Assembly: GCA_013287775.1 (NCBI GenBank) | Contig: JABDDE010000002.1 | Location: 11,988-75,987, forward strand | Direction: 5' to 3' | DNA length: 64,000 nt | Origin: Chlamydiota bacterium | GTDB lineage: Bacteria > Chlamydiota > Chlamydiia > Chlamydiales > FEN-1388 | Shown here: positions 17,945 through 42,208 of the stretch, piece after piece | Layout of the letters: every line of letters begins with the position of its first letter | Numbering within the stretch: the stretch's first letter is position 1 | Notes under the pieces: model-generated | Databases searched by the model: none | Told to the model about the DNA's origin: nothing | What the model saw: the letters and a program-made list of their open reading frames with translations, nothing else | Translations under genes and position numbers: made by a program

Positions 17945-18546
17945 CCCGCCACGGTAGTGGCGGCTGGTGTTAGCCCCGCGTGACCGAGGGAGCACGCATT
18001 GCGTGCGATCGAGGGAACGTGGGGTTGTGGGATCGAAAGAAGATCCGCGCCGCGGTAGCGGCGCATGAAGAGTGTTAGCCTAAGTGAGGAGCGAAGATTA
18101 CATGTTAATCGTAGTATGAAACAAATTCATAGTGTGCTTGTTGAGGCTATTTTCACTACACGGTTAAAAAAACAGAGCTGCGGTAACAGCGAAACCCATT
18201 TGTGTTGACATATTTAACGTACATATTGTTGTTACAGATACAATTCTGTTTCGCTGCTACCGCAGCTCTGTTTTTATTGATGCCTCATAAACCCCACGTT
18301 CCGCTCGGCCCGCGCGCTAGCGCCGCGGCCTTCACTGCACGCGGGGCTAGAGCCGCATTTCGCCACTACCGTGGCTCGGTTCTGATTGGTTACAGGTTTC
18401 TTTAAGTTGACACCACTCCAGCCTTAGCCTGATGCGTATGCCGCTGCCGAGGTGGGGTCCATATCAACTAGAGGCATAATATGTTATGCGTTTGCCTTAA
18501 GTGAACACTATTGGGTCTTAGCCTGATGCGTATGTGGTAGTGGCGG
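17945..18546. mobile_element. MITE-like modular repeat, rearranged or expanded copy
   Basis: Carries the modules ccacggtagtggcgg, gccccgcgtgaccgag, cgagggaacgtgggg and cagagctgcggtaacagcga with their inverted partners. Right terminus ctttaagttgacacc ends at 18414, followed by extra right-end modules. Confidence 0.7.
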
Positions 18547-18710
18547 TCAGTAAAGGCAAGGGTAGATTTTGCTATGGTGGCGCAAAAGAGTTGCATTTTT
18601 TACATTATCCTTGTTATAGTCTAGAGCGTAAAAGAGAAACCAGCTACACATTGTCGCATCAGTGCTGCGACAATGTCGTTCATAAAGTGGTTAGCGAGTA
18701 AGGAGGAAAA

Positions 18711-19295
18711 ATGAAATATTTCAAAATCTTGATGGTGTCAATTTTCTTGGCAGTAATTGGTGTTGCGCCTACTTCTGGGTGGACAATTGAAGCCTGCCGA
18801 GAAAAGCCAGCTTTAGATGATAATCTATCGTGGCAAAAAGTAGTGCAGTATGCCCAAAAGAATTTGTCATTAACAGGGCAACTGCTTGTAAAATCAGATG
18901 GATTTGCTTACTTGAAGGTTGATGATGCATACATTCACGACCTGTTTCCCATGCTTGGCCTAGAAAAGGATGGATTTAACAAGCCCCCTTACTTCCGGTC
19001 AAAAGAGGCTCCTGGAGCACATATTAGCGTATTTTATAAGGATGAACACATTAAGGCCGCAGAGGTTGGTCAATATTTTCGCTTTGAGCTTAAGCAAATT
19101 GTGATTGTAAAGGCAGACAAAGATACAAGCTATGCAGTGTTACAGGTGGTCTCCCCTGAATTAGAAAGGTTGCGAGAGAAATATGGATTATCTCCTAAAT
19201 TACATGGACATGAATATCATATTTCTTTAGGAAAGAAAACATATCGTTGTGGTAAAAAACATATTAAGGAGTCGAGTGAAACAAATCGCCATTAA
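18711..19295 (+). CDS. secreted 2H-phosphoesterase-like protein (tentative)
   Basis: Signal peptide plus two H-x-S-x motifs (AHISVF, YHISLG) ~68 aa apart in a ~170-aa mature protein. Confidence 0.45.
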   Translation: MKYFKILMVSIFLAVIGVAPTSGWTIEACREKPALDDNLSWQKVVQYAQKNLSLTGQLLVKSDGFAYLKVDDAYIHDLFPMLGLEKDGFNKPPYFRSKEAPGAHISVFYKDEHIKAAEVGQYFRFELKQIVIVKADKDTSYAVLQVVSPELERLREKYGLSPKLHGHEYHISLGKKTYRCGKKHIKESSETNRH

Positions 19296-19989
19296 AATTA
19301 TCTACGATAATTGTACAGCGAATGAACATTTCCAAGCAGGATGGGGATTTTCTTGCGTAGTTGAGGTTGGCCTTCGTAAAATCCTGTTCGATACAGGAGC
19401 AGATGTGCATGCTTTCTTTTCCAATCTTCAAAAATTTGGCATGCAATGTGAGGAAATTACCGACGTCGTATACTCTCATAAACATGCTGATCATATTGCA
19501 GGGTTTGAAGAGGTTATTGGAAAAATCAAACAGAGTGGCCGGCTTTTTCTTCCAAAAAAATTCCCATCTAAAAAACGACCTCCTACTATTCACACAGAAA
19601 TTGTTGAAGAGTTTCAAGAGATAGATTCAGGGATATATTCCTTGGTCTTAAAAGGTGGATTTTTTTTCTATGAGCAAGCGCTTGTAATAGAAACCAAAAA
19701 CGGTTTAGTGGTCATAACAGGATGTGCGCATCCAGGAATTATTACACTATTACAAGAAGTTCAAAAACGATTGAAACAACCTATTCATCTTGTCTTAGGC
19801 GGCTTTCATTTGTTTCGCAGTAAACAAAGCTACATTGACGAAGTGGTGCATCAATTTAAAGCTCTTAAAGTACAAACGGCAGCTCCCTGTCACTGTACTG
19901 GAAGCATGGCAATCGAGCGATTTCACCAAGCTTTTAAAGAGAATTTTTATAAAATTGGAGCAGGGACAATGCTTACATTAGATAAGTAA
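19276..19989 (+). CDS. MBL-fold metallo-hydrolase (COG1237-like)
   Basis: GTG at 19276 with AAGGAG 5 nt upstream. HKHADH (HxHxDH) motif. Confidence 0.7.
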   Translation: MKQIAIKIIYDNCTANEHFQAGWGFSCVVEVGLRKILFDTGADVHAFFSNLQKFGMQCEEITDVVYSHKHADHIAGFEEVIGKIKQSGRLFLPKKFPSKKRPPTIHTEIVEEFQEIDSGIYSLVLKGGFFFYEQALVIETKNGLVVITGCAHPGIITLLQEVQKRLKQPIHLVLGGFHLFRSKQSYIDEVVHQFKALKVQTAAPCHCTGSMAIERFHQAFKENFYKIGAGTMLTLDK

Positions 19990-21100
19990 CTTGTTGTAGA
20001 TAGGCTTCAAATTTCTCCAAAATATCTGGCATATTCTTTTTACCAAATCCGATTCGGAAATAATTTCCAGGAAGGTCAAAAACTGAGCCTGGCATAATTA
20101 AAATCCCGGTCGTACGTACGAGCCCTTTAGCAAACGTATCTATTGGTATGGGCAGCTCTAGCTTCACAACAGCCATTGTGCCGCTTTGCGGTCGGATCCA
20201 TGATAAGCGTTTTTGGTGACGTGTCATACAGGCATCCAGAATCTTGAGATTATGCAGGCAGATGTCCCGGCTTCGTTGTAAAATCTGTTCTTTGGCTCGG
20301 AGCGCCATGATTGCAAGGATTTCACTGGGAGCGCTATTGCAAATAGAGGTGTAGAGCTTATATGAGCCCACTTCTTGTAAAAAATTGGCCTCACGAGTTG
20401 CTATCCAGCCGATTCTTAGTCCTGCAAGACCAAATGATTTTGTCATTACATTAAGAGCAATACCTCTCTCATATGCATCTGCAATGGAAGGCAGCCGCTT
20501 TGCTGCGTCTACTTCCAAGTAGCGATACACCTCATCACAAAAAATATACGCCCCGTGATTTCTGGCGAGCTCGATGAGTTGTTCCAAAGCTCGTTTCTCG
20601 AGTAAGGCTCCTGTGGGGTTATGAGGATAGTTGAGTATGAGTAGCTTAGTATTGGAGCGAAAAGCTGTTTTCACAGCATCTACATCTAGATGCCATTGAT
20701 TCTCGGGTTTGAGTTGTATGGTAGAAACTTCCCCTCCACACACTTCAGGCAGTGTTGCAAGCGATGGATAACAAGGAGCGATGACGATGACATGATCTCC
20801 TGGTTCGAGTAAGACTCGCATCGTGCAATAAATTCCCTCTTCTGCTCCAGCAAAGGTGATGACGTCATCAGCTTTTACAGAGGTATATAGCTGTGCTATT
20901 TCCTCTCGAAGTAGGGGATGTCCTGGAGATTCAGTATAGCCGAGCGCAAGAGAGTTCCATAGTTTTTTAGAATCTGGATCGGCAAGCTTAAGAAGCTCTT
21001 GCAGCGTCCAGGTTTCAGCGTCCGAACAGCAAAGCAGATAGGGCGCGATAAATTCATATTTTTTCCAAAATTCTTCTAATTTAAAGGCAGGGATTTTCAT
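19973..21100 (-). CDS. PLP-dependent aminotransferase, class I/II
   Basis: NYPHNPTG and SKSFGLAGLRIGW (PLP lysine) motifs. Confidence 0.8.
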   Translation of the reverse strand: MKIPAFKLEEFWKKYEFIAPYLLCCSDAETWTLQELLKLADPDSKKLWNSLALGYTESPGHPLLREEIAQLYTSVKADDVITFAGAEEGIYCTMRVLLEPGDHVIVIAPCYPSLATLPEVCGGEVSTIQLKPENQWHLDVDAVKTAFRSNTKLLILNYPHNPTGALLEKRALEQLIELARNHGAYIFCDEVYRYLEVDAAKRLPSIADAYERGIALNVMTKSFGLAGLRIGWIATREANFLQEVGSYKLYTSICNSAPSEILAIMALRAKEQILQRSRDICLHNLKILDACMTRHQKRLSWIRPQSGTMAVVKLELPIPIDTFAKGLVRTTGILIMPGSVFDLPGNYFRIGFGKKNMPDILEKFEAYLQQVTYLM

Positions 21101-21701
21101 CTGTTTTCCTCAAATAATTATAGATAGTGGCGCGAGAAAGGTTGAGCACGTCAGCTGCATATGTGGCTGCGTGTTTAGCATTAAAGGCGCCTTCTCGATG
21201 AAGCGCCTTAATGAGGTCTCGCTTTTTTTCTTTGGACAGCATCTTGAGTGTCGTGCTTTCTCTTTTCAAATAATCGCAAACATAGAGGTTTATTTTTTCT
21301 CTCCAGTCGTTTTTGAAAAGGACCTCAGGCTGATTTTGGTAATTTTGCGTGGCTACCCACTGATCCAAAAAACCGCGAAATTCTTCCCATTTTGAAATGT
21401 CCAAATTGATACATAAGAGACCCATTGGATTTTTATTGTGATCGCGAAGAGTAGCGGTCGTTGCCTTCATTTTCCTGCCATCCCAGTTTGTTTTTGCATA
21501 CACCGGAAAAACGTCTGGGAGTTTGGTATGATCTGCTACCTCTTCAAGCAAAGAGAGATCTCCTACACTCCTCTTGGAAAAATTGTTATAAATAGCCGCG
21601 ATTTTTCCTGACTGTAGATCATGAATAACGACTTCTGCATGCGGCTGCAGTAAAAGTGTAATTGCCTCTGCTATGGGAAAATAATGTTTTAAAGTAGTCA
21701 T
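21081..21701 (-). CDS. YheO-like PAS plus HTH transcriptional regulator
   Basis: N-terminal LLQPHAEVVIHDL pattern and C-terminal HTH (AADVLNLSRATIYNYLRK). 20-nt overlap with the aminotransferase gene. Confidence 0.6.
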   Translation of the reverse strand: MTTLKHYFPIAEAITLLLQPHAEVVIHDLQSGKIAAIYNNFSKRSVGDLSLLEEVADHTKLPDVFPVYAKTNWDGRKMKATTATLRDHNKNPMGLLCINLDISKWEEFRGFLDQWVATQNYQNQPEVLFKNDWREKINLYVCDYLKRESTTLKMLSKEKKRDLIKALHREGAFNAKHAATYAADVLNLSRATIYNYLRKTDENPCL

Positions 21702-21802
21702 ATCCTAACCTTTTTTATATATTTTAGTCTAAATTAGACATAGTTGTCAATGCGTAATCATCTCTTTGCACTATTCGTGTGTGGTGTGCTATTCTTCATG
21801 GC

Positions 21803-22063
21803 ATGAAATCTATTCCACACAAACCAGAGCCTAGTTTTTCAGATGCGGCTCAGAAGATAGTTATCAATGGCTTATACGAGCATTATAAAGGACAGCGGTA
21901 TAGGGTGTTAGCAATTGCACACCATAGTGAAACTCTTGAAGAGCTTGTCGTGTATCAGGCCTTATATGGACAAGAGCGGGTGTGGGTGCGACCTCTTGCG
22001 ATGTTTTTGGAAAATGTTACCGTAGAAGGACAGCCGAAGCCACGATTCAGATTTATCGCGTAA
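21803..22063 (+). CDS. DUF1653 family protein
   Basis: YEHYKGQRYRVL...LVVYQALYG...WVRPLAMF core. Confidence 0.6.
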   Translation: MKSIPHKPEPSFSDAAQKIVINGLYEHYKGQRYRVLAIAHHSETLEELVVYQALYGQERVWVRPLAMFLENVTVEGQPKPRFRFIA

Positions 22064-22096
22064 ATTGCATTTTGCAAACGTGGAAGTGGCAAGTGG

Positions 22097-22966
22097 TTAT
22101 GCCTTTGTAGATAAAAAATCTTTTATGTGTTTAAACCACGCATGAGGTTTTTCAACGTATGGAAAATGACCGCAATTTGTCAGTAACACATATTGTGAAT
22201 CCTTGATGCTTTCATGGATCTTCTGGGCGGCATTTGGAGGAATTGGGTCGGCATCTCCATGTATAATTAACGTTGGCGTTTTTAAGCTCTGTAAAGCACT
22301 ATATAAGTTAAAATATTTTTTATATAAAGTGTTTCGAAACTGTTCATAGACTTGTGAGTATCGTAGGTATGCAGAAGAGGACATGCGCAGGTTTAAGAGC
22401 TGTACTTTTTCTGGATCATAGCAGTAGACACTGAAAAACATTCTGTACAGCTTCTCCATTATTTCTGGGTTTCCTTCCGCAAATGCTTTCGTCAGGTGTA
22501 TAGCGTCTAACTCTTTTTGATAAGGAGTCAAACGGCGAGTCTTTTCTTGTTCAAAAAGAGTATATTCTTCTAATGAAGCGGGTATAGAATTTGAAAGAAT
22601 GAGTTTTGCTACACGCTCGGGATGGGCAATGGTATATTGCATTGCCAAAAAGCCTCCCCAAGAATGCCCAAGAATGGAGATTTTTGGAAAATGAAGAGCC
22701 TCGCGAATGGCATCCAAATCATGCACGAACGTTTCAATGTTCATGGTGCTTGGAGTAATATCTCCGGTTGATTGACCACAGGCTCGTTGATCATAAAAAA
22801 TTATCAGGTTATTTTCTGCCAGCCTGTATAGTTGGGGAAGTAGATAATCCTGGCATAGCCCCGGACCACCGTGCACCACAATTAATGGCTCACCTTTGCC
22901 GGCAGCTCTATAAAAGAGCTTGGCAGTTCCAGCGCAAACAAAATCTTCTTTATGAAACGTGTGCAT
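22097..22966 (-). CDS. alpha/beta hydrolase (proline iminopeptidase-like), cytoplasmic paralogue
   Basis: HGGPG oxyanion motif and GHSWGG nucleophile elbow. Visibly a close paralogue of 24740-25687 by eye, but without a signal peptide. Confidence 0.8.
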   Translation of the reverse strand: MHTFHKEDFVCAGTAKLFYRAAGKGEPLIVVHGGPGLCQDYLLPQLYRLAENNLIIFYDQRACGQSTGDITPSTMNIETFVHDLDAIREALHFPKISILGHSWGGFLAMQYTIAHPERVAKLILSNSIPASLEEYTLFEQEKTRRLTPYQKELDAIHLTKAFAEGNPEIMEKLYRMFFSVYCYDPEKVQLLNLRMSSSAYLRYSQVYEQFRNTLYKKYFNLYSALQSLKTPTLIIHGDADPIPPNAAQKIHESIKDSQYVLLTNCGHFPYVEKPHAWFKHIKDFLSTKA

Positions 22967-22970
22967 GTGT

Positions 22971-23201
22971 ATTTATAACGCGATGTGCGATTTTAAGTGC
23001 TTTCAGGCACAAGTGCCTCAAAAGCACTTAAAGTCGCACAGGCAATTCAACTTATGAGCTGTTCGAATTGCAAGGGTTCATAGCTTTTTTTTGCCCAAAG
23101 GGCAAAATGCTAACCCCCAGGGCAACGCCCTGGGCCAGATGATGACCCAATATTGTTGCCTGAAGGGCAACACCAGCAAAAAGTCGCACATCGCGTATTT
23201 A
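22971..23201. repeat. hairpin-dense element bounded by ~24-bp inverted repeats
   Basis: atttataacgcgatgtgcgatttt (22971) pairs with aaaagtcgcacatcgcgtatttat (23178). Internal hairpins include ttgccc-aaag-ggcaa, cccaggg-caacg-ccctggg and gttgcc-tgaa-gggcaac. Confidence 0.5.
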
Positions 23202-23272
23202 TATGTGCGTATAACTGAATAGCGGCTTTTTGTAAAGGTCTTCCTAGGAATGGTGTTGTCATTTTAGGAACT

Positions 23273-23649
23273 TTATTGCTTTGGAATAACGGGAATTAGA
23301 TTTGCATACAAGCCGCGCTTGTCAAGCTTAGCCATCCACACCTCATGATCTTGCCTGCCGAAAACAACCCAAACACATTGATCATCAATGACAATACCGC
23401 AAGGGAAAACCACGCGGCAAGGCTTTATCATAGTATACTCTGGGCCATGGTAAAAATTCTTGCCTATAATTGGGCTTTGGCTCATTGCCGTTATTGCAAA
23501 TGGTGGCTCCTTTGCAAAGGTATAGGCGCCCATAAAGTAATGTTGTATGGGTTGTCTTTTGGAGCTTCCACTTGCGCAAATGCCCTTGCAATTAGCCCTT
23601 GGGCTGAAATAAAAGAAATTAATAAACAAAGTAATAACTTTTTATTCAT
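23273..23649 (-). pseudogene. frameshifted secreted-protein gene (signal peptide and body in different frames)
   Basis: ATG at 23649 (ATGA overlap with the upstream stop) encodes MNKKLLLCLLISFISAQG... and stops after 51 codons. The long ORF 23273-23629 is in another frame. Confidence 0.4.
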
Positions 23650-23930
23650 TTGGCTCCGCTTCTAAGGAGTGCTTTTACTTGCGATGAGACAAGATCCTGC
23701 TTCAGATAAGGTATATGCGCGCTATGCTTAAATAATTCATTCAATTCTGTAATCTGAAACCATTTTGTAGGGTCATCAACACGGCGTCGCAAATATTTTC
23801 TCTGTGCATTGAGAATATTTTCCGCCTCGACACGGTTGAGATCATGTATATGATGTACCCAAGTAGGAATAAGGCCGCTACAGTCCATTATTGGTGTTGC
23901 ACCTTCGGGAAATTCAAAAAATGACGCCAT
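23646..23930 (-). CDS. truncated Fic-family protein (N-terminal part of mobile mystery protein B type)
   Basis: FPEGATPIMDCSGLIPTWVHHIHDLNRVEAENI matches the N-terminus of this family as remembered. 94 aa only, and no HxFx(D/E)GNGR motif. Confidence 0.5.
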   Translation of the reverse strand: MASFFEFPEGATPIMDCSGLIPTWVHHIHDLNRVEAENILNAQRKYLRRRVDDPTKWFQITELNELFKHSAHIPYLKQDLVSSQVKALLRSGAK

Positions 23931-23931
23931 A

Positions 23932-24393
23932 TCATTCTCCCCACAATTTAGAATCGGGTCCTTGTAAGAGCCGATTTGTTTCTTGCTTCAGCAATTCCTC
24001 ATTAAAACGTTCATCTGGTTGTTGCTCCTCTAAATTCATTGTGCCTTTAAGATATTGTAACTGCGTTGCAGCGATTTTTTTAGCCTGATTGTGCCTCATA
24101 ATATCAATCGGCGCTTTCAGGAAAGGAAGGATCACCAGCTCGCACGAAATGGCGTGAAAAATTTTATTTAGAGTGGTTAAATTAATGTGCTCATGCCCAC
24201 TTTCTATACGTGACACAGTAGATTGAGGGACTCCTGCTCGCTTAGCTAGTGCTTGCTGTGATATTCCTAACTGTTTGCGGATGAGTTGCAGTATTGCGCC
24301 AATACTTAGCCCTTTCAATGCAAGTCTCATTTTTTGAGCGGCATGGGTGATTTCTTCAACAAGAAGTTTTTCGGCAGGAGAATATGATTTCAT
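23932..24393 (-). CDS. XRE-family HTH protein (mobile mystery protein A type)
   Basis: HTH LGISQQALAKRAGVPQSTVSRIESG. 153 aa, 1 nt upstream of the Fic-like gene. Confidence 0.6.
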   Translation of the reverse strand: MKSYSPAEKLLVEEITHAAQKMRLALKGLSIGAILQLIRKQLGISQQALAKRAGVPQSTVSRIESGHEHINLTTLNKIFHAISCELVILPFLKAPIDIMRHNQAKKIAATQLQYLKGTMNLEEQQPDERFNEELLKQETNRLLQGPDSKLWGE

Positions 24394-24413: not shown

Positions 24414-24496
24414 TATAGCATATTTGCTATAAAAAATGTCAAGTTTTATGCACCATAAGCATAAAAATGGGCAAAACCTATAGCATTTATGCTATA
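24414..24496. promoter_or_regulatory. two TATAGCA-N4-TGCTATA palindromes upstream of the HTH gene (operator candidates)
   Basis: Copies at 24414-24431 and 24479-24496. The first lies 21 nt upstream of the ATG at 24393. Confidence 0.4.
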
Positions 24497-24532
24497 AATG
24501 CCTCATACTTTTACGCCGTTATCTATACTAAT

Positions 24533-24639
24533 GGTGTCAATTTAAAGAAACTTGTAATCAATCAGAACCGAGCCATGGTAGTGGCGGAGTCCATTTACCT
24601 GATAGCATGATTTGTCATACGTTTCCTTAGGGTGACACC
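24533..24639. mobile_element. MITE-like element, 107-bp internal-deletion derivative retaining both ends
   Basis: Left end ggtgtcaatttaaagaaacttgtaatcaatcagaaccgagccatggtagtggcgg is joined to right-end modules ...gtttccttagggtgacacc. Confidence 0.7.
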
Positions 24640-24739
24640 ATTGCCTGGGGAGATACAGCAATTCGGACTTCACGAGGAAGTCCACACCTCATGGTCTTGC
24701 CTGCCGAAAACCACCCACTCACATGTTTCTTCTGAACTG

Positions 24740-25687
24740 TTACGACTTTGTCGTTAAAAAAATTTGTGTGTGATTAAACCACGCATCCGGTTGTTCAACG
24801 TACGGAAAGTGCCCACAATCTGTTAGTACCACATATTTCGAATCCTTGATATTTTCATGGATTTTTTGGGCGGCAATGAGAGGAATAGGATCAGTGTCTC
24901 CATGTATAATTAACGTCGGAATTTTCAAGCGCTGTAGTGCTCCATATAAGTTAAAAGATTTTATAAAAATAGAGCGTCGGAAATATTCATAGACTTGTGC
25001 GCCTCTTAGGGACGCGGAGGGGGGTATGTATAGATTTAAGAGCTGCACTTTTTCTGGATTATAACAGTAAGTGCGCAAAAGCATCCTATACATCTTCTCC
25101 ATTATTTCTGAGTTTCCTTCTGCAAATTCTTTCGTATGCTGAATAGCTTCTAATTCTTTTTGATAAGGAGCCGTGCGCCGAGTGTATTCTTGCATAAAAA
25201 GAGCATATTCTTCCGATGCAGCAGGCATGGAATTTGAGAGAATGAGTTTTTCTACGGATTCAGGATAAGTGAGTGCATATTGCATTGCTAAAAACCCTCC
25301 CCAGGAATGTCCAAGAATGGAGATTTTCTGAAAATGAAGAGTCTGGCGAATGGCATCCAAATCCTGAACAAACGTTTCAATGTTGATCGTGTCGGCATTG
25401 ATGTCTCCAGTTGATGCACCACATCCTCGCTGATCATAAAAGATTACTAGGTTGTTTTCTGCCAATTTGTATAGCTGAGGAAGTAGGTAATCCTGACTTA
25501 ATACTCCGGCACCGCCATGCAAAACAATTAATGGATTTCCTTTTCCAAGCGCTCTGTAGAAGAGTTTGGCGCTTCCAATGCAAACGAAATCTTCTTTTGG
25601 AACTTCTGTATATGCGTTTGCAATGGGCTCCTTCGCTGAAATGAAAGAAATTAATAAGCAAAAGGAAAGTAAAAATTTTTTTATCAT
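24740..25687 (-). CDS. alpha/beta hydrolase (proline iminopeptidase-like), secreted paralogue
   Basis: Signal peptide MIKKFLLSFCLLISFISA, plus HGGAG and GHSWGG motifs. Confidence 0.8.
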   Translation of the reverse strand: MIKKFLLSFCLLISFISAKEPIANAYTEVPKEDFVCIGSAKLFYRALGKGNPLIVLHGGAGVLSQDYLLPQLYKLAENNLVIFYDQRGCGASTGDINADTINIETFVQDLDAIRQTLHFQKISILGHSWGGFLAMQYALTYPESVEKLILSNSMPAASEEYALFMQEYTRRTAPYQKELEAIQHTKEFAEGNSEIMEKMYRMLLRTYCYNPEKVQLLNLYIPPSASLRGAQVYEYFRRSIFIKSFNLYGALQRLKIPTLIIHGDTDPIPLIAAQKIHENIKDSKYVVLTDCGHFPYVEQPDAWFNHTQIFLTTKS

Positions 25688-25791: not shown

Positions 25792-25931
25792 GCCTCTTTT
25801 CCCATAGTTCCACCTTCACAAGAAGGGAAATAGAAGGACAAGTTTTATGCACCATAAGCATAAAAATGGGCAAAACCTATAGCTTTTATGCTATACATGC
25901 CTCATACTTCTACGCTGTTATCTATACTAAT

Positions 25932-26305
25932 GGTGTCAACTTAAAGAAACTTGTAACCAATCAGAACCGAGCCACGGTAGTGGCGGAAGCTCATTAGCCC
26001 CGCGTGACCGAGCAGCGTGCGCTTAGCGCACGCCGAGGGAACGTGGGGTCATGGAGCATAAATAAAAAACAGAGCTGCGGTAGCAGCGATACAGAAATGT
26101 ATCTGCACCAACGATACAACGCAAATGGGTTTCGCTGCTTCCGCAGCTCTATTTTTTAACCGCTGCCCAACCCCACGTTCCGCCGGCCGTAGCGCATGCG
26201 CTACGGCCGCGCTCCACGCGGGGCTAATGAATTCCACCGCTGCCGCGGTGGGGTCCATATCAACTAGAAGCATAATATGTTACACGTTTGCCTTAAGTTG
26301 ACACC
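25932..26305. mobile_element. MITE-like element, full 374-bp copy (long imperfect inverted duplication)
   Basis: Termini ggtgtcaacttaa / ttaagttgacacc. Both arms carry the same module order. No ORF with coding character. Confidence 0.75.
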
Positions 26306-26343
26306 ACTCCAGCCTTAGCCTGATGTACATGACACTACCCCCT

Positions 26344-32830: not shown

Positions 32831-32900
32831 CAAGTAGAAAAATCGGTAGCCACCAATTCGGATATCCTTAGGAAATCGAATTGCTGTTTATGAGTTTATT

Positions 32901-32938
32901 GTCATATGCAATTTTCCTGGCGGAAAATTGCATATGAC
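32901..32938. repeat. PAL-1 palindrome (subtype A), perfect
   Basis: gtcatatgcaattttcc-tggc-ggaaaattgcatatgac. Confidence 0.9.
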
Positions 32939-33125
32939 AAATTGAAGATCTACGAATCGAGGAAGAGGTTGATATCCCAAAGGCTATCGGAGGCTGTAAC
33001 TTGTGCAGCATGATTTATATGATGCAAAGCTTGATATTCTGAGACGAGTCCTATAATTGAGGATATTTGAACAGAAGGATCCGAATAACTCAGGGTTGAG
33101 CTGATTATCAAGTCCTAATGACAAT

Positions 33126-33295
33126 GGTGTCAACTTAAAGAAACTTGTAACCAATCAGAACCGAGCCACGGTAGTGGCGGAAGCTCATTAGCCCCGCGTG
33201 ACCGAGGATCGTGCGCTATTAGCGCACGATCGAGGGAACGTGGGGTTGTGGAGCATAAATGAAAACAGAGCTGCGGTAGCAGCGACACAGAATTG
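33126..33295. mobile_element. MITE-like element, left half only
   Basis: Nearly identical to 25932-26100. Ends ~40 nt before the ATG at 33338. Confidence 0.75.
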
Positions 33296-33337
33296 AGTGG
33301 TCGATATTATGTGACACAGTGTGATAGGATATCTGTT

Positions 33338-36188: not shown

Positions 36189-36691
36189 GAGTAATAAGAT
36201 TTTTTTTCAAATTAATGGTTTATTTTTTTGCGTTCTGTAATTTTTTTTATTTCATATTTTTGGCCGAAAGATATGTAGACTTGAAAGATGATGAAAAATT
36301 TAGGAATTGGCTGGGGCGAGAATTTGAAATGAAGAAAGGTGTTTTTATTCACCATCAGTTTGCTACAAATAGATTTTATCTTGAAGTATCAACAGCTGCC
36401 GAATCTTTTCCGCAGAATATAGACGAGTATCTCCAATCGCCAGAAAAATGGGGTAATGGTACAGAGGATTGGCGTCAACCCGTTATACCAGGGACAAGGT
36501 TTAAAATTGAACGAATTTATATAGATCAGAAGCCGGCAGTAGTCTCCATATTTATTATTCAAGCAGTGATAGTAAATGGAATACATAAAAATTTGCGTGT
36601 GCAGGCTAGGGAAATTTTTAAGTGTGATCATATAACTCATGAAATTTTTAGCCCGAAAAATGATTTGTGCCGCGAAGTTTTGTATGACTAA
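36185..36691 (+). CDS. hypothetical membrane-anchored protein
   Basis: ATGA overlap with the upstream stop. N-terminal TM helix FFFKLMVYFFAFCNFFYFIFL. Confidence 0.5.
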   Translation: MRVIRFFFKLMVYFFAFCNFFYFIFLAERYVDLKDDEKFRNWLGREFEMKKGVFIHHQFATNRFYLEVSTAAESFPQNIDEYLQSPEKWGNGTEDWRQPVIPGTRFKIERIYIDQKPAVVSIFIIQAVIVNGIHKNLRVQAREIFKCDHITHEIFSPKNDLCREVLYD

Positions 36692-36715
36692 ACATATTTC
36701 ATTAGGTTAATGATA

Positions 36716-36820
36716 ATGCATAATTCTATTAAGCCAATGTTAGGGAGGTATGCATGCCGTTCGTTTCAAGAACACGAGCAAGCTCTTCGCGAAATTCTGC
36801 AGGAAATCGCTCTTGGATGA
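36716..36820 (+). pseudogene. AbiEii-type nucleotidyltransferase toxin, N-terminal stub 2
   Basis: MHNSIKPMLGRYACRSFQEHEQALREILQEIALG*. No NTase core follows. Confidence 0.55.
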
Positions 36821-36854
36821 TGTATACTTAAGTTGTAAATATGGAGGTAAATGT

Positions 36855-37124
36855 ATGAGAAAGCATATGCATGTCTCTGAGGAAAAAACAAAAGTCACAT
36901 TTGAATGCTCCCCCGAGGAGAAGATATATATTAAGATGCTCGCAGCTAAGTCTTGTATGACTCTTGGCGATTTTATACTGTCTTATCTTAAAATTGATTT
37001 CCCAAAGAAAAAAAGAAAAGCAAATAAAGAAACGCTTGAAGCGATTAAAGAATTACGAGAAGGGACGCTTTACGAGTCCATGGAGGATTTTTGGGCAGAT
37101 ATGGGAGTCAAACCAAGTGGATGA
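36855..37124 (+). CDS. orphan RHH-type antitoxin (paralogue of 41328-41615)
   Basis: GGAGG RBS. KVTFECSPEEKIYIKMLAAKSCMTLGDFILSYL parallels RMTIDFPVMKHKQLKAIAALLGIPMKEFILSCV. No toxin gene downstream. Confidence 0.55.
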   Translation: MRKHMHVSEEKTKVTFECSPEEKIYIKMLAAKSCMTLGDFILSYLKIDFPKKKRKANKETLEAIKELREGTLYESMEDFWADMGVKPSG

Positions 37125-37158
37125 CCTCTCATTCAATATTATTCTAGCAGGCTATTTA

Positions 37159-38208
37159 TCAGTAGGTTTCCCAGTACTTGGGTGATAGGAGCACGCCAAC
37201 TGCATTCGCGCCTTGTGTTCCTGCATAGTGGACTTGAGAGATATCGAGAGCTTGCATTATTCCAAGGGCAAGGATGAGATTTGAAACAACGTAGGCTGAT
37301 ACACCTTTGTATTCTTGTGCAATGGAATCTTTCATCATAATTGCATCATCATCGAGATTTACTCTCGATTCGATTTCCTGTTGCAATCGCAGGCTGTTGA
37401 AATCAGTATTCTGTAGCATGCCATATAAGGGATTGATCCCGACTTCCAGTACAATAGTATCTGGACGATGCAATTTTTGACGCAGAGTTGCAGGAACGTC
37501 TTTGAGAGTATCCTTAATGAACTGAAGAGCTTGAGTGACTTGTGGCTTTGAAATGGGGTTTGGACTTACTGTTTGATCTGTCCTGCCTTGGATTTGCAAA
37601 AGAGCAATTTTAAAAGGGATTTTCCCCAGTTTTCCCTGGTAGACCATGTAATGATCATCACATTTCATGGTGATTTGAAAGCTTGCTCCGCCAAAATCCC
37701 ACGAAACTGCATGCACTGGATCTATACCAGATATGCTCACAGCGCTGATAAATCCTAAAATTCCCTCTTCTTCTTGGGAAATTATGGTCACCGGGACTCC
37801 TGCTTCATTCTTGATGCGTTCGGCTAAGGCCTCACCGTTTTTAGCAAGTCGAAGGGTTTCTGTGGCAACGGCGTGGCGAGCTTCAGGATGAAAAGGGGCA
37901 GCTTTTTCTAGTAATTGTACGATTGCTTCCACTGTCTGATTTTGGATATCGGAGCTTAATCTTCCATCGAGACTTTTTACTAAACTTTCTCGTAATTTCA
38001 CCGTGGCGATGTCGGTCAGTAATACATTAACAATCTTATTCGCTGTAATATCGACATCGGATACCTGCATCTTTATCTGGCCAGAGCCTATATCAAATGC
38101 TGCCCTTCGTTCTATTTTGTGTGGCTGGGGAGCATTAGTGCCAAAAATTACTCCTACAGGAGCTACTGTTAGCAATACAGCTACAAGCAGATAGAGTGTT
38201 TTTTTCAT
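37159..38208 (-). CDS. secreted ASKHA-fold phosphatase, Ppx/GppA - GDA1/CD39 (NTPDase) superfamily
   Basis: ATG at 38208 with GAGGAA RBS and a signal peptide. Motifs FDIGSGQIKM, ATETLRLA, QEEEGILGF and DFGGASFQ. Confidence 0.6.
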   Translation of the reverse strand: MKKTLYLLVAVLLTVAPVGVIFGTNAPQPHKIERRAAFDIGSGQIKMQVSDVDITANKIVNVLLTDIATVKLRESLVKSLDGRLSSDIQNQTVEAIVQLLEKAAPFHPEARHAVATETLRLAKNGEALAERIKNEAGVPVTIISQEEEGILGFISAVSISGIDPVHAVSWDFGGASFQITMKCDDHYMVYQGKLGKIPFKIALLQIQGRTDQTVSPNPISKPQVTQALQFIKDTLKDVPATLRQKLHRPDTIVLEVGINPLYGMLQNTDFNSLRLQQEIESRVNLDDDAIMMKDSIAQEYKGVSAYVVSNLILALGIMQALDISQVHYAGTQGANAVGVLLSPKYWETY

Positions 38209-38233
38209 AAGTTCCTCACTTTTCATATTCTTG

Positions 38234-38743
38234 TTAGGAGATAGCCTCCCTTTCTAGCAGCCATTTTTTGCGCTCGATGCCGCCACTATACCCACCTAAT
38301 TCGCCATCCTTACAAATGACTCGATGGCAAGGCACCACAATGGTGAGCAGGTTACTTGCAATTGCCTTGGCAACGCCTCTACAAGCCGTAGGTCTTCCAA
38401 TTTTGGAGGCAATATCAGAATAGGATAGGGTCTCACCATAAGGGATATTGCACAGCTCTTTCCATACTCGTTTTTGAAACGGGGTACCGAGTAGTTGCAC
38501 GGGCGTTGTAAAGGTCTTGAGTGTGCCTTTGAAATAGCTCCGGAGCTCTGCATCTATTGTACGAATTGGAGAGGACATGCCCTGGACGACGGTGGCATCG
38601 AATTGTGACTCCATTCTGGCAATATTTCTGATAGCGTCTTGTTTCGAAATAAACCACAAGAGAATGAGTTTGTTCGCATTCGAAATCACGGTAAGTTCCC
38701 CAAGAGGGGTCTCTAGCCATGCTACGTTGAGTTTACGACCCAT
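38234..38743 (-). CDS. ogt: methylated-DNA-protein-cysteine methyltransferase
   Basis: VPCHRV active-site motif and YGETLSYSDIA. Confidence 0.8.
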   Translation of the reverse strand: MGRKLNVAWLETPLGELTVISNANKLILLWFISKQDAIRNIARMESQFDATVVQGMSSPIRTIDAELRSYFKGTLKTFTTPVQLLGTPFQKRVWKELCNIPYGETLSYSDIASKIGRPTACRGVAKAIASNLLTIVVPCHRVICKDGELGGYSGGIERKKWLLEREAIS

Positions 38744-39276
38744 TTTGTAATATGTGCAGCGAGCTGCTTTGAGAGTTCTGGTAGTCTTGCCATAATATGT
38801 TTAGAGGTATCGGCAGTACAGTAATCGGAAACGATCTTGTGCATAGTGAGGGGAACGTTTTTCTCTTGCGCAAACTGTGCAATCGAAAAGCCCTCCATAT
38901 CGATGATGTCATAGTTTTTTGCTAAGGTATCGCGCAGCTGTGGGTCATGCAGCGGCACGGGTGATGAAATAAGCTTCAGACCATCTCTTTGGAGCTGAAT
39001 GGATTGCTCATCTCGTCCAACGAGCTGCACTGCATGAATTGACCCGACATGAATATTTGTTTTGAGGGCGCCCACAATACCAAAATTACTAATCTTAGTA
39101 ATAGCATGCATGTGGCTGCTGAGCCGCTCATAGGTGGTTGTGAGGCCCATGCCAGTAATTAAAATATGGCCATACGGACAATGATACAAGTGGCTCTCTA
39201 TTTTTGTTGCTTGTAGCGATGCTAGGGACGCCTCTGCTTCTTTTTCTGTGGCAAAACAAATAAGCGTGCTCATCAT
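38722..39276 (-). CDS. nucleoside phosphorylase/nucleosidase superfamily protein (MTAN/futalosine hydrolase-like)
   Basis: DMEGF motif and GMG near the N-terminus. ATG at 39276 lies 2 nt after the upstream stop. Confidence 0.5.
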   Translation of the reverse strand: MMSTLICFATEKEAEASLASLQATKIESHLYHCPYGHILITGMGLTTTYERLSSHMHAITKISNFGIVGALKTNIHVGSIHAVQLVGRDEQSIQLQRDGLKLISSPVPLHDPQLRDTLAKNYDIIDMEGFSIAQFAQEKNVPLTMHKIVSDYCTADTSKHIMARLPELSKQLAAHITKWVVNST

Positions 39277-39277
39277 T

Positions 39278-40045
39278 TTATTTTGGTTTTTGTACAATGG
39301 CGTACACAACGCTCCATGGCACCACTTTTCCATCCAGATTTTCTGCCTCTCCATCAAGAGAAGTACAGCACTGAATAATAGTATATTTGCCATCAAGTAA
39401 TTTTTTTACTTCCTCTGGGGAAAAGGTGCTTAGGTTGTGGTCCTTCGCACGAATATCGCCTTTGCCCCAAAAGGTTGCTGCAAAAATACCGCCAGGCTTC
39501 AGATGATGATAAACAGTATCTAATACAGAGTCAAGATCTTTTCGAGGGACGAAGCATAAACTGTTATTGGCAATGATAAGATCCACATTTTGAGGCAGAT
39601 GCATATCACGAAAATCTTCGTTCTGTAAAACGAGGCGTTGTTTGTCTGCTTCAGATGTTGATGCAGCGAGCGCTTTTAATGATTCTGGAAAGACATCTAC
39701 GGCATGCACTATCCATGTTTTGAGACTGAGTAAGTGCTTTGTCCATACGCCAGTGCCAGAGCCCAAATCTACGGCCACACCTTGAGAGATGCCATGTGTA
39801 TTGGCTACTCTCAGTACCTTATCGAGAAAGTCTGTGTTTGAGCCATATTTAATTTCTGAGACTTTCTGAATTTCCATCATGTTCATAAGCCCACAATCCG
39901 TATGAAACACGAGTTCATTTAAGTTGGGCGGATTTTGTAATAATGTCTCATATTTTTTCTGGCATTCCGGAGTATTCTGAGCAGCATAGATACAGCTCAT
40001 GCTTAATACCTGCATACACAATATGCATATTTTCCATATATTCAT
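39278..40045 (-). CDS. class I SAM-dependent methyltransferase with signal peptide
   Basis: VDLGSGTGVW motif I. ATG at 40045 with GAGGTG 7 nt upstream. Confidence 0.7.
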   Translation of the reverse strand: MNIWKICILCMQVLSMSCIYAAQNTPECQKKYETLLQNPPNLNELVFHTDCGLMNMMEIQKVSEIKYGSNTDFLDKVLRVANTHGISQGVAVDLGSGTGVWTKHLLSLKTWIVHAVDVFPESLKALAASTSEADKQRLVLQNEDFRDMHLPQNVDLIIANNSLCFVPRKDLDSVLDTVYHHLKPGGIFAATFWGKGDIRAKDHNLSTFSPEEVKKLLDGKYTIIQCCTSLDGEAENLDGKVVPWSVVYAIVQKPK

Positions 40046-40101
40046 AATATTACACCTCATTGATACAAACACTATAGCACACCAGGATAAAAGGGGGCAA
40101 G

Positions 40102-41034
40102 ATGAGATGTGCTATCGATGGAAAGGTGTGGTGTATTGATGATGGGGCGGCCCATTTGGTGGCCTCTTTGCAAGCCCTTGGCAACATACTTCCTAAGGGG
40201 CCTGTTTGGAATTTTGCCATTGGGACGGGTGTAGGAATAGGTTTTACTGACAGCGAACATCACATTCGAGACTTATCGGGTGCATGGGTGTTTTTTGATG
40301 GAAATCCCTGGGGTATGAAGGAGCCACGTTCTGGATTACCAATGTGGCAGGCTTGTGGATCGCGCTCTGGGTTTGATCAGATTGTTTCGGAGAATCAGGG
40401 AATTGTAAATGACAGTGTGTTTCTAGAATTTGCGCTTCGTTGGAAAGCCTATATCGAGCATTGTGTTTTTGAGCATGCCACAAATATGTTGTGGGCAAGA
40501 CCTGCGTCAATCATTTTTACAGGTGGCCATATTGATGTCTATGCGGATCGCTTGGTGAATATACTCCAGACATACTCTCTGCCGGTTCCTCTATTTACTG
40601 GTCCGAAACATGGTGGTCTATTGGGTGCAGCGTGGTATACAGTGCTCCATTCTTTTGGTGAAGAAGCATTGATCGAGGCGATTGTTTCTAAAAAGGTAGA
40701 ACAAGTTGCGGGGCTTCTCCAGCAAGGTGCCGACGTGAATAAAAAGGATACCTTAGGCAAAAGTCCTCTCATGGCTGCCGTTGCAACAGGCTCGCTTGCA
40801 ATAGTAGAGTTATTGATACAACATGGTGCTGCAATAGATGCAGCCGATTTTGCAGGACAGACCCCTCTGTTTCACGCAGTCAAAACGGGTAAGGATGATA
40901 TCGCTGCCTTTTTATTAGAACATGGTGCTGATAGCAGGCATACCGATTACTGGTGCCACACAGCCGCATTTTTTGCGAAGCGGAATCAGGACATGGAAAA
41001 GATCTTACCATTACATTGCGCTGCAAAAATGTAA
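40102..41034 (+). CDS. ROK/sugar-kinase-like (ASKHA) domain fused to three ankyrin repeats
   Basis: FAIGTGVGIGF and IIFTGGH...GLLGAAWY are followed by ANK repeats (GKSPLMAAVATGSLAIVELLIQHGAAID, GQTPLFHAVKTGKDDIAAFLLEHGAD). Confidence 0.6.
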   Translation: MRCAIDGKVWCIDDGAAHLVASLQALGNILPKGPVWNFAIGTGVGIGFTDSEHHIRDLSGAWVFFDGNPWGMKEPRSGLPMWQACGSRSGFDQIVSENQGIVNDSVFLEFALRWKAYIEHCVFEHATNMLWARPASIIFTGGHIDVYADRLVNILQTYSLPVPLFTGPKHGGLLGAAWYTVLHSFGEEALIEAIVSKKVEQVAGLLQQGADVNKKDTLGKSPLMAAVATGSLAIVELLIQHGAAIDAADFAGQTPLFHAVKTGKDDIAAFLLEHGADSRHTDYWCHTAAFFAKRNQDMEKILPLHCAAKM

Positions 41035-41046
41035 AAAATAATAATG

Positions 41047-41172
41047 GGTGTCGCAGCTACCGCAGCTCTATTTTTTAACAATTCCAGTAACCCCACGTTC
41101 CCTCGGCTGCACGCATAGCGGCATCCTTCGGTCACATGGGGCTAGAACACAAATTTTGCCGCTACCGCGGCA
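41047..41172. mobile_element. MITE-like element, internal right-arm fragment
   Basis: gcagctaccgcagctctattttttaac...ccccacgttccctcgg...ggggctag...gccgctaccgcgg modules. Confidence 0.6.
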
Positions 41173-41327
41173 GGAGCGTATTTCCTAAAAACGTCTTTAC
41201 GCTTTAATGCATATATAGTATAATTGAATTAAAAGGAAGAGCTGCATGCAAAATTTGCTTTGGAGCCAAAGTTATCGAATTTTGGGCCAAATGGAATTTT
41301 GTAAGTAGCTCTGGAGGGAGAGATTAT

Positions 41328-41615
41328 ATGGCTACACATTCTCATTCACATTCTCATCAAGATTTTGCACGCATGACAATAGATTTTCCCGTTATGAAAC
41401 ATAAGCAACTAAAAGCAATTGCAGCGTTGCTTGGTATTCCCATGAAAGAATTTATATTATCATGTGTTCTCGAAAAATTAGAGAGTAAAGAAATAGTAAA
41501 ATCTCTTGAAGATCAAAGGGATATCGCAGCAGGTGAACGTGGCATAAAAAGCATTAGGGAACGTGGGTATGATACTTTAGAGGAAGTAAAGCGCTACTTA
41601 GGACTAGATGATTGA
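41328..41615 (+). CDS. RHH-type antitoxin (RelB/ParD-like)
   Basis: 95 aa with an ATGA overlap to the RelE-like gene. Confidence 0.65.
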   Translation: MATHSHSHSHQDFARMTIDFPVMKHKQLKAIAALLGIPMKEFILSCVLEKLESKEIVKSLEDQRDIAAGERGIKSIRERGYDTLEEVKRYLGLDD

Positions 41616-41872
41616 TGTATACGATTATTTTTGAGATAGATTTAAAGAAAACCCTAAAAAAAATTCCAAAGCAAGATGCTAAAAAAATTATTGACACTAT
41701 CGACACACTTGCCAATAACCCAAGACCAAGATGGGTAGAACAACTGAAAGGGCACATTGAAACACTATATAGAATAAGAGTGGGTAGCTATCGGGTTATT
41801 TATACGATAAATGACAATACACTAGTTGTGTGTGTCGTAGATGTCGATCATAGAAAAGACGTATACAGATAG
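41612..41872 (+). CDS. RelE/ParE family toxin
   Basis: 86 aa. KKIIDTIDTLANNPRP...LYRIRVGSYRVIYTINDNTLVVCVVDVDHRKDVY is the classic RelE/StbE pattern. Confidence 0.75.
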   Translation: MMYTIIFEIDLKKTLKKIPKQDAKKIIDTIDTLANNPRPRWVEQLKGHIETLYRIRVGSYRVIYTINDNTLVVCVVDVDHRKDVYR

Positions 41873-41959
41873 ATGGTTTAGTAGACGCTGGTATTGAAAA
41901 AATGCGTCATAATATGCCATTCAATGTAGCGTGAGCTATACAGGGGGGGGGGCTATTTA

Positions 41960-41998
41960 CGTCATGTGCCATTTTCCGCAGGAAAATGGCACATGACG
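41960..41998. repeat. PAL-1 palindrome (subtype B), perfect
   Basis: cgtcatgtgccattttcc-gca-ggaaaatggcacatgacg. Confidence 0.9.
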
Positions 41999-42078
41999 CT
42001 ACAACACCACACTCCCTTCTATCAAGCTGCGATAATATGTTGATCGTCTAAGTAATTCTTGGGCAGAGTATGCCTTAA
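41981..42078. repeat. direct repeat DR1: PAL-1 right arm plus pseudo-copy of the last ~25 codons of the ABC gene
   Basis: Aligns with 44453-44558 apart from an 8-bp gap and a few substitutions. Followed by a solo MITE terminus at 42072-42087. Confidence 0.8.
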
Positions 42079-42208
42079 GTTGACACCATCAAGGGCTATT
42101 ACTCATCCAAAAGGATGCAATAAAAATCGGAATGTGATATCTTTAAGATATGCAGGTTACATTCATGGAACGTGAACTTAATCTGCACGAATTAGGAGTT
42201 TAAAATTC

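Follow-up and report, generated by a model that had tools for sequence, protein, structure and literature searches.

Repetitive extragenic palindromes (REPs), their inverted doublets (REPINs) and the REP-associated tyrosine transposases (RAYTs) are the main example of a domesticated transposase that maintains a non-autonomous repeat population. To our knowledge, all well-studied cases involve one transposase clade and short palindromes footed by GTAG. This study describes a conserved, more elaborate hairpin module tied to a different, IS200-like clade of Y1/HUH transposases that was reported to lack such repeats, which suggests that this lifestyle arose more than once, or before the clades split. 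The module was found in a stretch of 64,000 nucleotides of a Chlamydiota bacterium (contig JABDDE010000002.1, positions 11,988 to 75,987; hereafter the window), where it forms the arms of small intergenic elements with inverted terminal repeats. These elements are probably composite non-autonomous mobile DNA, in which a REPIN-like doublet of Y1-associated arms lies inside a shell of IS4 type. A doublet from an under-described Y1 clade, nested in a shell resembling an IS4-type MITE (a miniature transposable element with inverted repeats), largely explains the finding.

In the described REP/REPIN-RAYT systems (Nunvar 2010; Bertels & Rainey 2011, PMC3116915; Ton-Hoang 2012, PMC3333891) a Y1/HUH gene is bracketed by inverted hairpin repeats, the same repeat is scattered between genes as inverted doublets and singlets, the transposase occupies a fixed locus in apparently a single copy, and there are no target duplications; the bracketing, the scattered doublets and the lack of target duplications recur here, and a fixed single-copy locus may do so. 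The transposase, however, is of class 1, IS200-like, with the motif Y---Q--HH instead of the Y---NP of the class 2 enzymes, and the repeat is a module of ~110 nt with three hairpins instead of a palindrome of 20-40 nt. Where a REP has GT[AG]G at its 5' foot, hairpins 1 and 3 of this module carry a GTAG in their loop and 3' stem (C-GGTA-G). Elements of the IS200/IS605 family (IS608, ISDra2) have a transposase of the same fold family and subterminal hairpins read on one strand, but their two ends are different hairpins on the same strand, whereas the arms described here are inverted copies of one module. Their genes are also multi-copy and near-identical, whereas the gene associated with these arms has a fixed single locus in two cases (proteins P0030 and P0110).

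The transposase group that comes closest, TnpA-Y1 subclass 1.2, was reported without REP, mainly from Cyanobacteria and Bacteroidetes (Quentin et al. 2018, PMC6006769). Its published members share with those found here the motifs DH[IV]H, WQ and Y---Q--HH, a length of ~150 amino acids (about 148), a conserved C-terminal tail and a low copy number, but the members found here carry a conserved flanking module and are widespread in Chlamydiota-like genomes. Possibly identical with this subclass is the ‘IS200 Group 3’ of Bertels et al. (2017, PMC5581495), for which abundant 16-mers in the flanks, and no duplicates of the gene, were noted. The outer part of the elements is closest to IS4-family MITEs and mobile insertion cassettes (MIC231; PMC2266710) and to ISPa1635, which are likewise short units, non-coding or with cargo, bounded by IS4-type inverted repeats (CAT/AATR...TCAAC..TAA); the elements of the window differ in lacking direct repeats of 8-13 bp, in having a second, unrelated type of mobile repeat as their interior, and in the absence of a cognate transposase from the window. 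Mosaic repeats, such as the BIMEs of Escherichia coli, the Correia/NIME repeats of Neisseria and ERIC, resemble them in being modular, hairpin-forming and intergenic and in occurring as whole, half and rearranged copies. Terminal inverted repeats with TA duplications bound the Correia and ERIC elements, and we know of no sequence similarity between any of these mosaic repeats and the elements described here, nor of a three-hairpin arm in any of them.

The element and its three-hairpin arm

With up to two mismatches allowed, the terminus GGTGTCAACTTAA occurs 8 times in the window against 1.5 expected, a count reached in none of 100 shuffles. The sites, at 18402, 24533, 24627, 25932, 26293, 33126 and 42075, agree with the initial annotation of this stretch, and every copy that it had listed exists. 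Its terminus is real but was drawn too short: it reads (C/T)AATGGTGTCAACTTAARGAAAC, and the GGTGTCAACTTAA termini extend to CAATGGTGTCAACTTAARGAAAC. The general description given there, of a non-coding, repeated, modular sequence resembling a mobile element and carrying genuine terminal inverted repeats, holds, and none of the open reading frames (ORFs) inside the elements, which it had regarded as artefacts, has a Pfam match.

The full copy at 25932-26305 (374 bp) is an imperfect inverted duplication, and its modules follow one another in the sequence in the order already described. Folded as DNA, it forms one long irregular hairpin of -121 kcal/mol, compared with -58.8 +/- 4.1 for shuffled sequences (z = -15). 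Its tips are inverted copies of each other, exact over 13 nt and with a common motif of ~22 nt. Each half runs from GCCAC-GGTA-GTGGC through a linker of ~10 nt, a long hairpin and an A-rich stretch to GAGCTGC-GGTA-GCAGC. Taken to its extended ends, the composite element occupies 25928..26309 on the forward strand, limits that also result from its end-to-end alignment with a homologue in another organism (locus L074). It consists of the left IS4-type end with an outer segment (25928-25970), the left arm (25971-26087, +), a spacer (26088-26133) at the position that the transposase gene takes in autonomous units, the right arm (26134-26251, -; model match 26134-26249), and the right outer segment with its end (26252-26309). 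Parts of it recur closely in the region, since a repeat finder returned blocks of 58 nt at 18358-18415, 25931-25988 and 33125-33182 with 97-100% identity.

The arm measures ~95-130 nt and folds as single-stranded DNA on one strand only. Hairpin 1 has a stem of 5-7 bp of free sequence closed by C-GGYA-G. It is followed by a long, irregular core hairpin, TAGCCCCGCGTG...GGAACGTGGGG, which has the base CCCCGCGT/ACGTGGGG, a G-T wobble and, at the tip, a GC palindrome that varies, and then by an A-rich linker and hairpin 3, GAGCYGC-GGNA-GCRGC. A covariance model built from this module called six strong arms in the window (64-85 bits, E = 1e-11 to 5e-16), the two arms of the full copy scoring 82.6 and 84.7 bits, together with a seventh, divergent arm at 10041-10139 (+) which the initial annotation had overlooked. 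All 7 arms in the 64 kb are intergenic, as had been claimed for the copies then listed. With its three hairpins, fixed spacing and fixed loop sequences, the arm is a well-defined, sequence-conserved single-strand substrate for biochemistry.

Metagenomes were scanned with a pattern that comprised the core base only (TAGCCCCGCGTG, 26-48 nt, ACGTGGGG). It matched at least 48 contigs, many of them with one copy per strand; ~20 of the 48 loci listed carry +/- arm pairs, and 8 of those listed are chance matches without similarity around the pattern. The remaining loci gave ~65 instances with one architecture in spite of differing stem sequences. Hairpin 1 sits 7-12 nt upstream of the core, with stems such as GCCAC, ATCGC, ACCGC, CCCCC, GCCGC and GCTGC and the loop GGTA (30 instances) or GGCA (19); hairpin 3 sits 20-29 nt downstream, with stems such as GCCGC, GCTGC, GCCCC, GTTGC and GTCGC and the loop GGTA (31), GGCA (10) or GGAA (5).

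In an alignment of 46 sequences, 100% of the cells of hairpins 1 and 3 are paired, the instance set having been restricted to instances with both small hairpins (56 of those from a slightly relaxed core pattern). Double, compensatory changes occur in 6 of the 7 pairs of hairpin 1 and in 5 of the 7 pairs of hairpin 3. The covariation score is 0.346, compared with 0.109 for shuffles, none of 500 being as high, and with at most 0.075 for slid partners; the covariation among copies that the initial annotation had suggested looking for is thus strong. That the core stem does not vary is a product of the search pattern, in which it was fixed. Compensated or shifted core-stem pairs are seen in divergent copies: CCCCGTGT/ACGCGGGG in locus L043, CCCCATGT/ACGTGGGG in the window arm at 41053, and AGCCCAGGGT/ACCCTGGCT in that at 10041. 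The shortest core, in locus L082, is TAGCCCCGCGTG-AAGCGAAGCGA-AACGTGGGG; this minimal core contains GCGAAGC, which we take to be the classic, exceptionally stable DNA mini-hairpin. The arm family accounts for broken contigs and for spurious short ORFs in the metagenome bins of chlamydia-like bacteria, and the covariance model can be used to mask or annotate these elements.

Neither viral contigs, scanned with the core pattern, nor plasmids, searched by BLASTN with the 374-bp copy, contained a match. Nothing relevant on the core sequences was found in the literature; one eLife paper contains both strands of an 11-mer, presumed to be primers. Integron attC sites, CRISPR repeats, hairpins of diversity-generating retroelements, and hammerhead or twister ribozymes were considered and dropped on inspection of the sequence; in particular, the CTGATG motif near the ends forms no hammerhead core. 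Sites of a tyrosine recombinase were also rejected, an integrase-like gene being present near the transposase gene in loci L055 and L082 and not in the other loci.

A Y1 transposase gene between convergent arms

An ORF of 150-151 amino acids was found between two convergent modules in loci L038, L041, L054 and L055, and with five further loci that were fetched by exact protein (L081, L082, L083, L089 and L095) the arms flank a Y1 transposase gene, tnpA, at nine loci. The sense arm lies directly upstream of tnpA in all nine, and an antisense arm lies directly downstream in 7 of the 9. In the five loci fetched by exact protein, hairpin 3 of the upstream arm abuts the ribosome-binding site. The protein matches the Pfam family Y1_Tnp with 91-99 bits and passes the NCBIfam model for IS200/IS605 transposases (65 bits, cut-off 55). 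Its nearest solved structures by sequence include ISHp608 TnpA (2a6m, 2vhg), along with 2fyx and 2xm3, which were deposited just as ‘transposase’. Searching for homologues yielded 1036 proteins at E <= 1e-10; several bear names from metagenome-assembled genomes (MAGs) of Chlamydiae or Chlamydiales. In its motifs (DHIH, WQ and YIKNQEKHH), its length and its C-terminal tail the protein fits subclass 1.2, an assignment made by comparing translated motifs with the published table (Table 1, PMC6006769).

Identical P0030 and P0110 proteins are each encoded on 7-8 contigs, from several metagenome samples in the case of P0030 and from several JGI and Logan samples in that of P0110, and the neighbouring genes are always the same. 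Several of these contigs break ~100 nt upstream of the gene. Breaks upstream of tnpA in a constant context fit a fixed single-copy gene beside multi-copy arms, as in RAYT systems. In locus L082 an arm doublet lies 8 kb from tnpA.

The full copy of the window corresponds to a tnpA unit in which a spacer of ~45 nt replaces the gene, and is therefore a REPIN-like doublet. Since its interior is homologous to arms that flank a Y1/HUH gene in many other bacteria, a good part of them environmental Chlamydiota, it points to an element of REP/REPIN type that acts through single-stranded DNA hairpins. On the model of IS608 TnpA and of TnpA-REP in E. coli, the Y1 transposase would recognise the folded arm hairpins on single-stranded DNA, and would cut and rejoin without target duplication. 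Anatomy, homology, covariation and gene association are observations; the enzyme that would move the copies in this genome is an inference. Exact-protein look-ups for the tnpA of the window lineage returned only short Logan contigs of the same organism without the transposase.

A broader proposal is put forward more tentatively, at somewhat less than even confidence: the subclass-1.2 Y1 transposases may run a third, independent REP/RAYT-like system, in which a gene present once would sustain, across the genome, a population of ~110-nt arms with three hairpins. The arms, with conserved GGYA loops, a G-T wobble and a mini-hairpin core of GCGAAGC type, would have spread as inverted doublets in environmental Chlamydiota and other bacteria, and in the window lineage a doublet would have been captured between IS4-type repeats, as a REPIN riding in a DDE-type MITE, which would give it two possible routes of movement.

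Distant subclass-1.2 tnpA genes (37% identity) on plasmids of the Bacteroidota Bernardetia and Persicobacter are also bracketed by inverted hairpin repeats (L084, 2880-3000 and 3470-3560; L085, 2880-2990 and 3450-3550), with three hairpins per side in Persicobacter. The repeats of both plasmids are unrelated in sequence to the chlamydial-type arm; they are visible by eye, and the covariance model did not detect the arms flanking the Bacteroidota tnpA. In locus L078 a group II intron reverse transcriptase/maturase gene (RVT_1 and GIIM; 682-2040) stands between convergent arms in the usual place of the Y1 gene.

The IS4-type shell and competing explanations

Homologous elements are present in a related organism at loci L074, L056, L025 and L061, all from one heated-water metagenome series, L025 being a MAG contig labelled Gammaproteobacteria. 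The further copies in relatives for which the initial annotation had proposed a search are thus found. The complete element in L074 (1590-1983) is 85% identical to the full copy of the window and its flanks are largely unrelated; the flanks of the elements in L025 and L056 also differ from those in the window. Complete and derived elements of the window and L074 measure 115-394 bp. On the left, the similarity with the homologues reaches as far as (C/A/T)A(A/T/G)T-GGTGTCAAC, and on the right as far as GTTGACACC-A(N)T. The inverted repeats mark the exact ends of copies from two organisms, so the shell delimits a unit that moved.

Among genome-collection sequences the terminus pattern has 31 matches, about half of which carry the extended end CAWT-GGTGTCAAYTTAAGGAAA, although the pattern did not demand it, some loci with several copies. 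This end occurs in small repeated elements of very distant phyla, none of them with a target duplication: in Poribacteria (L002, L004, L007, L027 and L028), in Coleofasciculus (L019 and L020), in L015, in a member of Chlamydiales (L017) and in a Rickettsia endosymbiont (L003). L002 has one strict copy of the end (6943) and four tandem GACGCC variants at 1429-2019. Mini elements with end repeats only are found in L019 (65 bp, with little beyond the two inverted repeats), in L015 (230 bp) and in L004 (two elements), and none of these loci has a Y1-type arm.

The search for an insertion sequence with the same termini, also proposed earlier, led to L006, a MAG in which a transposase gene of the IS4 family (DDE_Tnp_1; NF033592, 127 bits, cut-off 115) has the extended end 120 nt upstream of it. 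The nearest annotated relative is ISPa1635, with the ends CAATGTCATCAACTT... and ...GTTGATGACATTG, also given as CAATGTCATCAAC...; and the end in the window fits what De Palmenaer et al. 2008 (PMC2266710, Table 1) give as signatures of the IS4 and IS231 subgroups. The shell of two outer segments ending in CAATGGTGTCAACTTAARGAAAC could thus possibly be moved in trans by a DDE transposase of the IS4 family. If so, the doublet nested in IS4-type ends is a compact case of two transposition systems sharing one element. An IS4-type end is absent from the nine tnpA units. A similar end stands 51 nt before hairpin 1 in locus L043, which bears arms and is without tnpA. In the same locus an ISNCY-family transposase gene (17-907) abuts the arm doublet that ends in the IS4-type terminus, which places three kinds of mobile element within 1.6 kb.

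Beyond the ends, CTTAGCCTGATG follows three ends in the window (18423-18434, 18517-18528 and 26314-26325), preceded by ACTCCAGC or ATTGGGT, and a similar ACTTCAGCCTTTGG follows an end in L074 at ~1984-1995. This motif might be a target that the element prefers, or else a part of the element that has so far gone unrecognised.

Several points weigh against a REPIN-like doublet in an IS4-type shell. The arms do not have the canonical REP layout, with GTAG in the loop and 3' stem and with arms ~3 times the length of a REP, and the transposase fails the NCBIfam model for REP-associated tyrosine transposases (NF047646; score 31 bits, cut-off 80). Nothing but a unit of ~840 bp (88.8% identical in nucleotides and 98.7% in amino acids) is common to L054 and L055, whose flanks differ, which looks like the behaviour of an insertion sequence. 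The choice of instances by an exact core pattern and a hairpin filter inflates conservation, and covariation of palindromes in DNA may stem from hairpin-templated repair instead of selection. The TBLASTN search of the window found no Y1 and no IS4-family transposase, in accordance with the earlier remark that no transposase is present there, other transposase families not having been searched for; no IS4-family transposase was found in the related loci either. IS4-family elements usually make target duplications of 8-13 bp (PMC2266710), and a target-site duplication is missing from each of 8 complete elements that bear these ends, ISPa1635 included: direct repeats of at least 4 nt are absent from the boundaries of all 3 complete copies of the window lineage, and a single 4-nt match at chance level was seen across all 8. 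Finally, the 12-nt stretch beyond the end (ACTYCAGCCTT) is common to three ends, which makes the true boundary uncertain.

The initial annotation had read the elements as MITEs, and in its plain form this reading holds that only the terminal inverted repeats matter, that an IS4-family transposase of the DDE type is encoded elsewhere in the genome, and that the hairpin interior is a passenger from a Y1 unit. It explains why, in two organisms, copies have the inverted repeats as their exact ends, one of them, in L074, being a full copy with the same ends in unrelated flanks, and why the 115-bp derivative at 24529..24643 keeps both ends and has no core hairpins, the retention of ends in deletion derivatives having been recognised from the start. 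The transposase gene beside the end in L006, the similar ends of ISPa1635 and the mini elements of other phyla speak for it too. The reading is nevertheless rather unlikely to be sufficient. Apart from the missing target-site duplications and transposase noted above, solo arms without ends exist at 41053-41171, 10041-10139 and 17946-18064; the arms remain well folded, with compensated changes between nearly identical copies; and the interior is homologous to arms that flank an IS200-like Y1/HUH gene, so that it is not MITE filler. That arm and end are associated again in the unrelated lineage of L043 argues against a mere chance passenger.

That same association, seen in two arm lineages, would fit the view that the whole ~380-bp unit, outer segments included, is a lineage-specific full arm set of the Y1 transposase, its likeness to IS4 ends being coincidental or convergent. 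The absence of target-site duplications is what HUH/Y1 transposition predicts, and over the first 75 nt (end, outer segment and hairpin 1) the window and L025 disagree at only 1 position, whereas their core tips are different. This view is improbable, as none of the nine tnpA units carries such an end, as the end is found without an arm in Poribacteria, cyanobacteria and others, and as it adjoins an IS4-family transposase gene.

Still less probable is that the copies are immobile relics, spread in the region by segmental duplication and gene conversion and perhaps used by the host as terminators or insulators. The copies at 24529 and 25928 do share their upstream flank: a stretch of 98 nt is duplicated at 24435-24532 and 25834-25931, directly left of the element end in each case, as part of a 154-nt repeat of 94% identity that reaches into the left end of the element. 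One of these duplicates lies upstream of the second of two paralogous alpha/beta-hydrolase genes (22097-22966 and 24740-25687; 77% identical over 300 nt), and the other has a gene for a helix-turn-helix regulator downstream of it; the duplicated flank and the paralogous hydrolases point to a local segmental duplication involving the element. Several copies are also truncated or rearranged, and hairpin 3 with its T-run resembles a terminator in both directions. Against relics stand the copies at 33122, 41047 and 10041, which have unrelated flanks, and the homologous elements in other contexts in another organism (L074, L025, L056 and L061). Short-read contigs of the same organism break near elements as well, a hint of more genomic copies: L001 begins ~70 nt past the full copy, and L086 ends near the 85-nt tandem repeats that precede the arm at 10041, although breaks are also seen at an unrelated palindrome.

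A structured non-coding or cis-regulatory RNA (an element of an untranslated region (UTR), or a small RNA) instead of a DNA-level element, the alternative raised by the initial annotation, is very unlikely: strand-specific features (G-U-compatible wobble, GNNA-like loops and tandem G-A-compatible internal loops), the strong stem covariation, a sense arm always just upstream of tnpA that could belong to its 5' UTR, and an antisense hairpin 3 with T-run like a small intrinsic terminator would agree with it, but at the gathering score of Rfam 15 no family matches the elements, tRNA-Arg being the sole match in the window, lenient scans give generic long-hairpin models of miRNA precursors alone, far below threshold, the modules lie as inverted pairs and in either orientation relative to genes and to the transposase gene, so that transcription would read half of them from the wrong strand, the link of the arms with a transposase of single-stranded DNA is consistent, and the minimal core contains GCGAAGC, an exceptionally stable DNA mini-hairpin.

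Further copies and the surrounding region

The leftmost copies form a rearranged cluster. It begins with an arm at 17946..18064 (+; model match 17948-18062, 76.3 bits) that has hairpin 1, the core hairpin and hairpin 3 and is without the left outer segment. A degenerate second (+) arm, detected by the repeat finder, follows at 18065..18252, with the A-run and hairpin 3 (18167-18192) alone recognisable; the central spacer after it is the same as in L074, where 1743-1990 is 87% identical to 18171-18425. Next comes a unit at 18253..18419 (-), composed of a reversed arm (18253-18375, 84.9 bits) and a left-type outer segment with an IS4-type end (18376-18419), within a repeat of 97% identity over 58 nt. 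The cluster closes with a solo right end at 18441..18513 (+), which comprises a remnant of hairpin 1 and the right outer segment with a degenerate end (TGCCTTAAGTGAACACT), is 91% identical to 26237-26304, and has CTTAGCCTGATG motifs on both sides, at 18423 and 18517.

The 115-bp mini derivative (24529..24643, +) consists of both ends, both outer segments and one hairpin 1 (GCCAT-GGTA-GTGGC, 24572-24585), without a core hairpin. A left half at 33122..33325 (+; 83.2 bits) contains the end and outer segment (33122-33164), an arm (33165-33283) and a remnant of the spacer, and is without the right arm. An outward-facing TTGACA in its terminus and a flanking GATAAT make up a promoter-like site at 33133-33104.

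What had been called an internal fragment at 41047-41172 is in fact a complete solo arm of right-arm type (41047..41175, -; model match 41053-41171), which scored 64.1 bits and was not among the sequences used to build the model. Likewise, the solo terminus reported at 42072-42087 is present, but it is just the tip of a solo right outer segment of ~80 nt (~42012-42091, +), which contains an insertion of 21 nt and ends ...GCCTTAAGTTGACACCATCA. A truncated paralogue of this segment (44490..44563, +; repeat of 92% identity) ends at GCCTTAATTTGA. Between the solo arm (41053-41171) and the solo IS4-type right outer segment (42012-42091) lies a parD/parE toxin-antitoxin pair (41328-41872), a layout like that of the cargo of a mobile insertion cassette.

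The divergent arm at 10041..10139 (+; 29.3 bits, E = 1.5e-4; fold z = -5.4) represents a second subfamily, with GGTCC-GAA-GGACC as hairpin 1, a core stem TAGCCCAGGGT/ACCCTGGCTA, an A-rich linker, and GGCC-TGTA-AGGCC followed by GACACAG as hairpin 3. Directly before it, and just downstream of a gene for an RluA-type pseudouridine synthase, tandem repeats with a period of ~85 nt occupy 9779-10029. Other tandem repeats, with a period of 33 nt, lie at 389-586 inside the ORF 290-796.

Read antisense, hairpin 3 with its T-run fits the intrinsic-terminator consensus at 26074-26087 (-), 26134-26147 (+) and 33270-33283 (-). To judge from these matches, the full element may act as a weak bidirectional terminator, possibly a side effect for the host.

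The window mixes genes of housekeeping type, including those for a PiT phosphate transporter, the RluA-type synthase, an aminotransferase and Ppx/GppA, with genes for Sel1 and ankyrin repeat proteins, toxin-antitoxin systems and uncharacterised large proteins. The best named relatives of the phosphate transporter are chlamydial, with ~52% identity, and its closest relative has 69%. A contig of the same organism that reaches ~2.3 kb past the right edge of the window carries a type-III-secretion export gene (Bac_export_1; L087, 126-938), recO and a NUDIX gene. Taken with the chlamydial relatives of the transporter, this gene content hints that the host, an uncultured bacterium, is probably chlamydia-like.

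Besides the elements, the window contains a second, unrelated repeat family of near-perfect palindromes of ~37-45 nt, GTCATGTGCCATTTTCC-NNNN-GGAAAATGGCACATGAC, whose stems covary between copies. They lie at 235-281, 757-805, 3386-3434, 12747-12799, 32897-32945, 41953-41999, 43711-43757, 47513-47565, 54542-54588, 58908-58956, 60540-60591, 61411-61460 and 62412-62468, most of them at the 3' ends of genes or between convergent genes, and could represent hairpin terminators or a further family of REP-like type. In a third, small family of repeats, at 11395-11445, 12281-12356 and 14727-14810, the palindrome GTGAGTGGGCAGCTCGATAGAGCTGCCCACTCAC is followed by ATCTAAATAATCAAATC.

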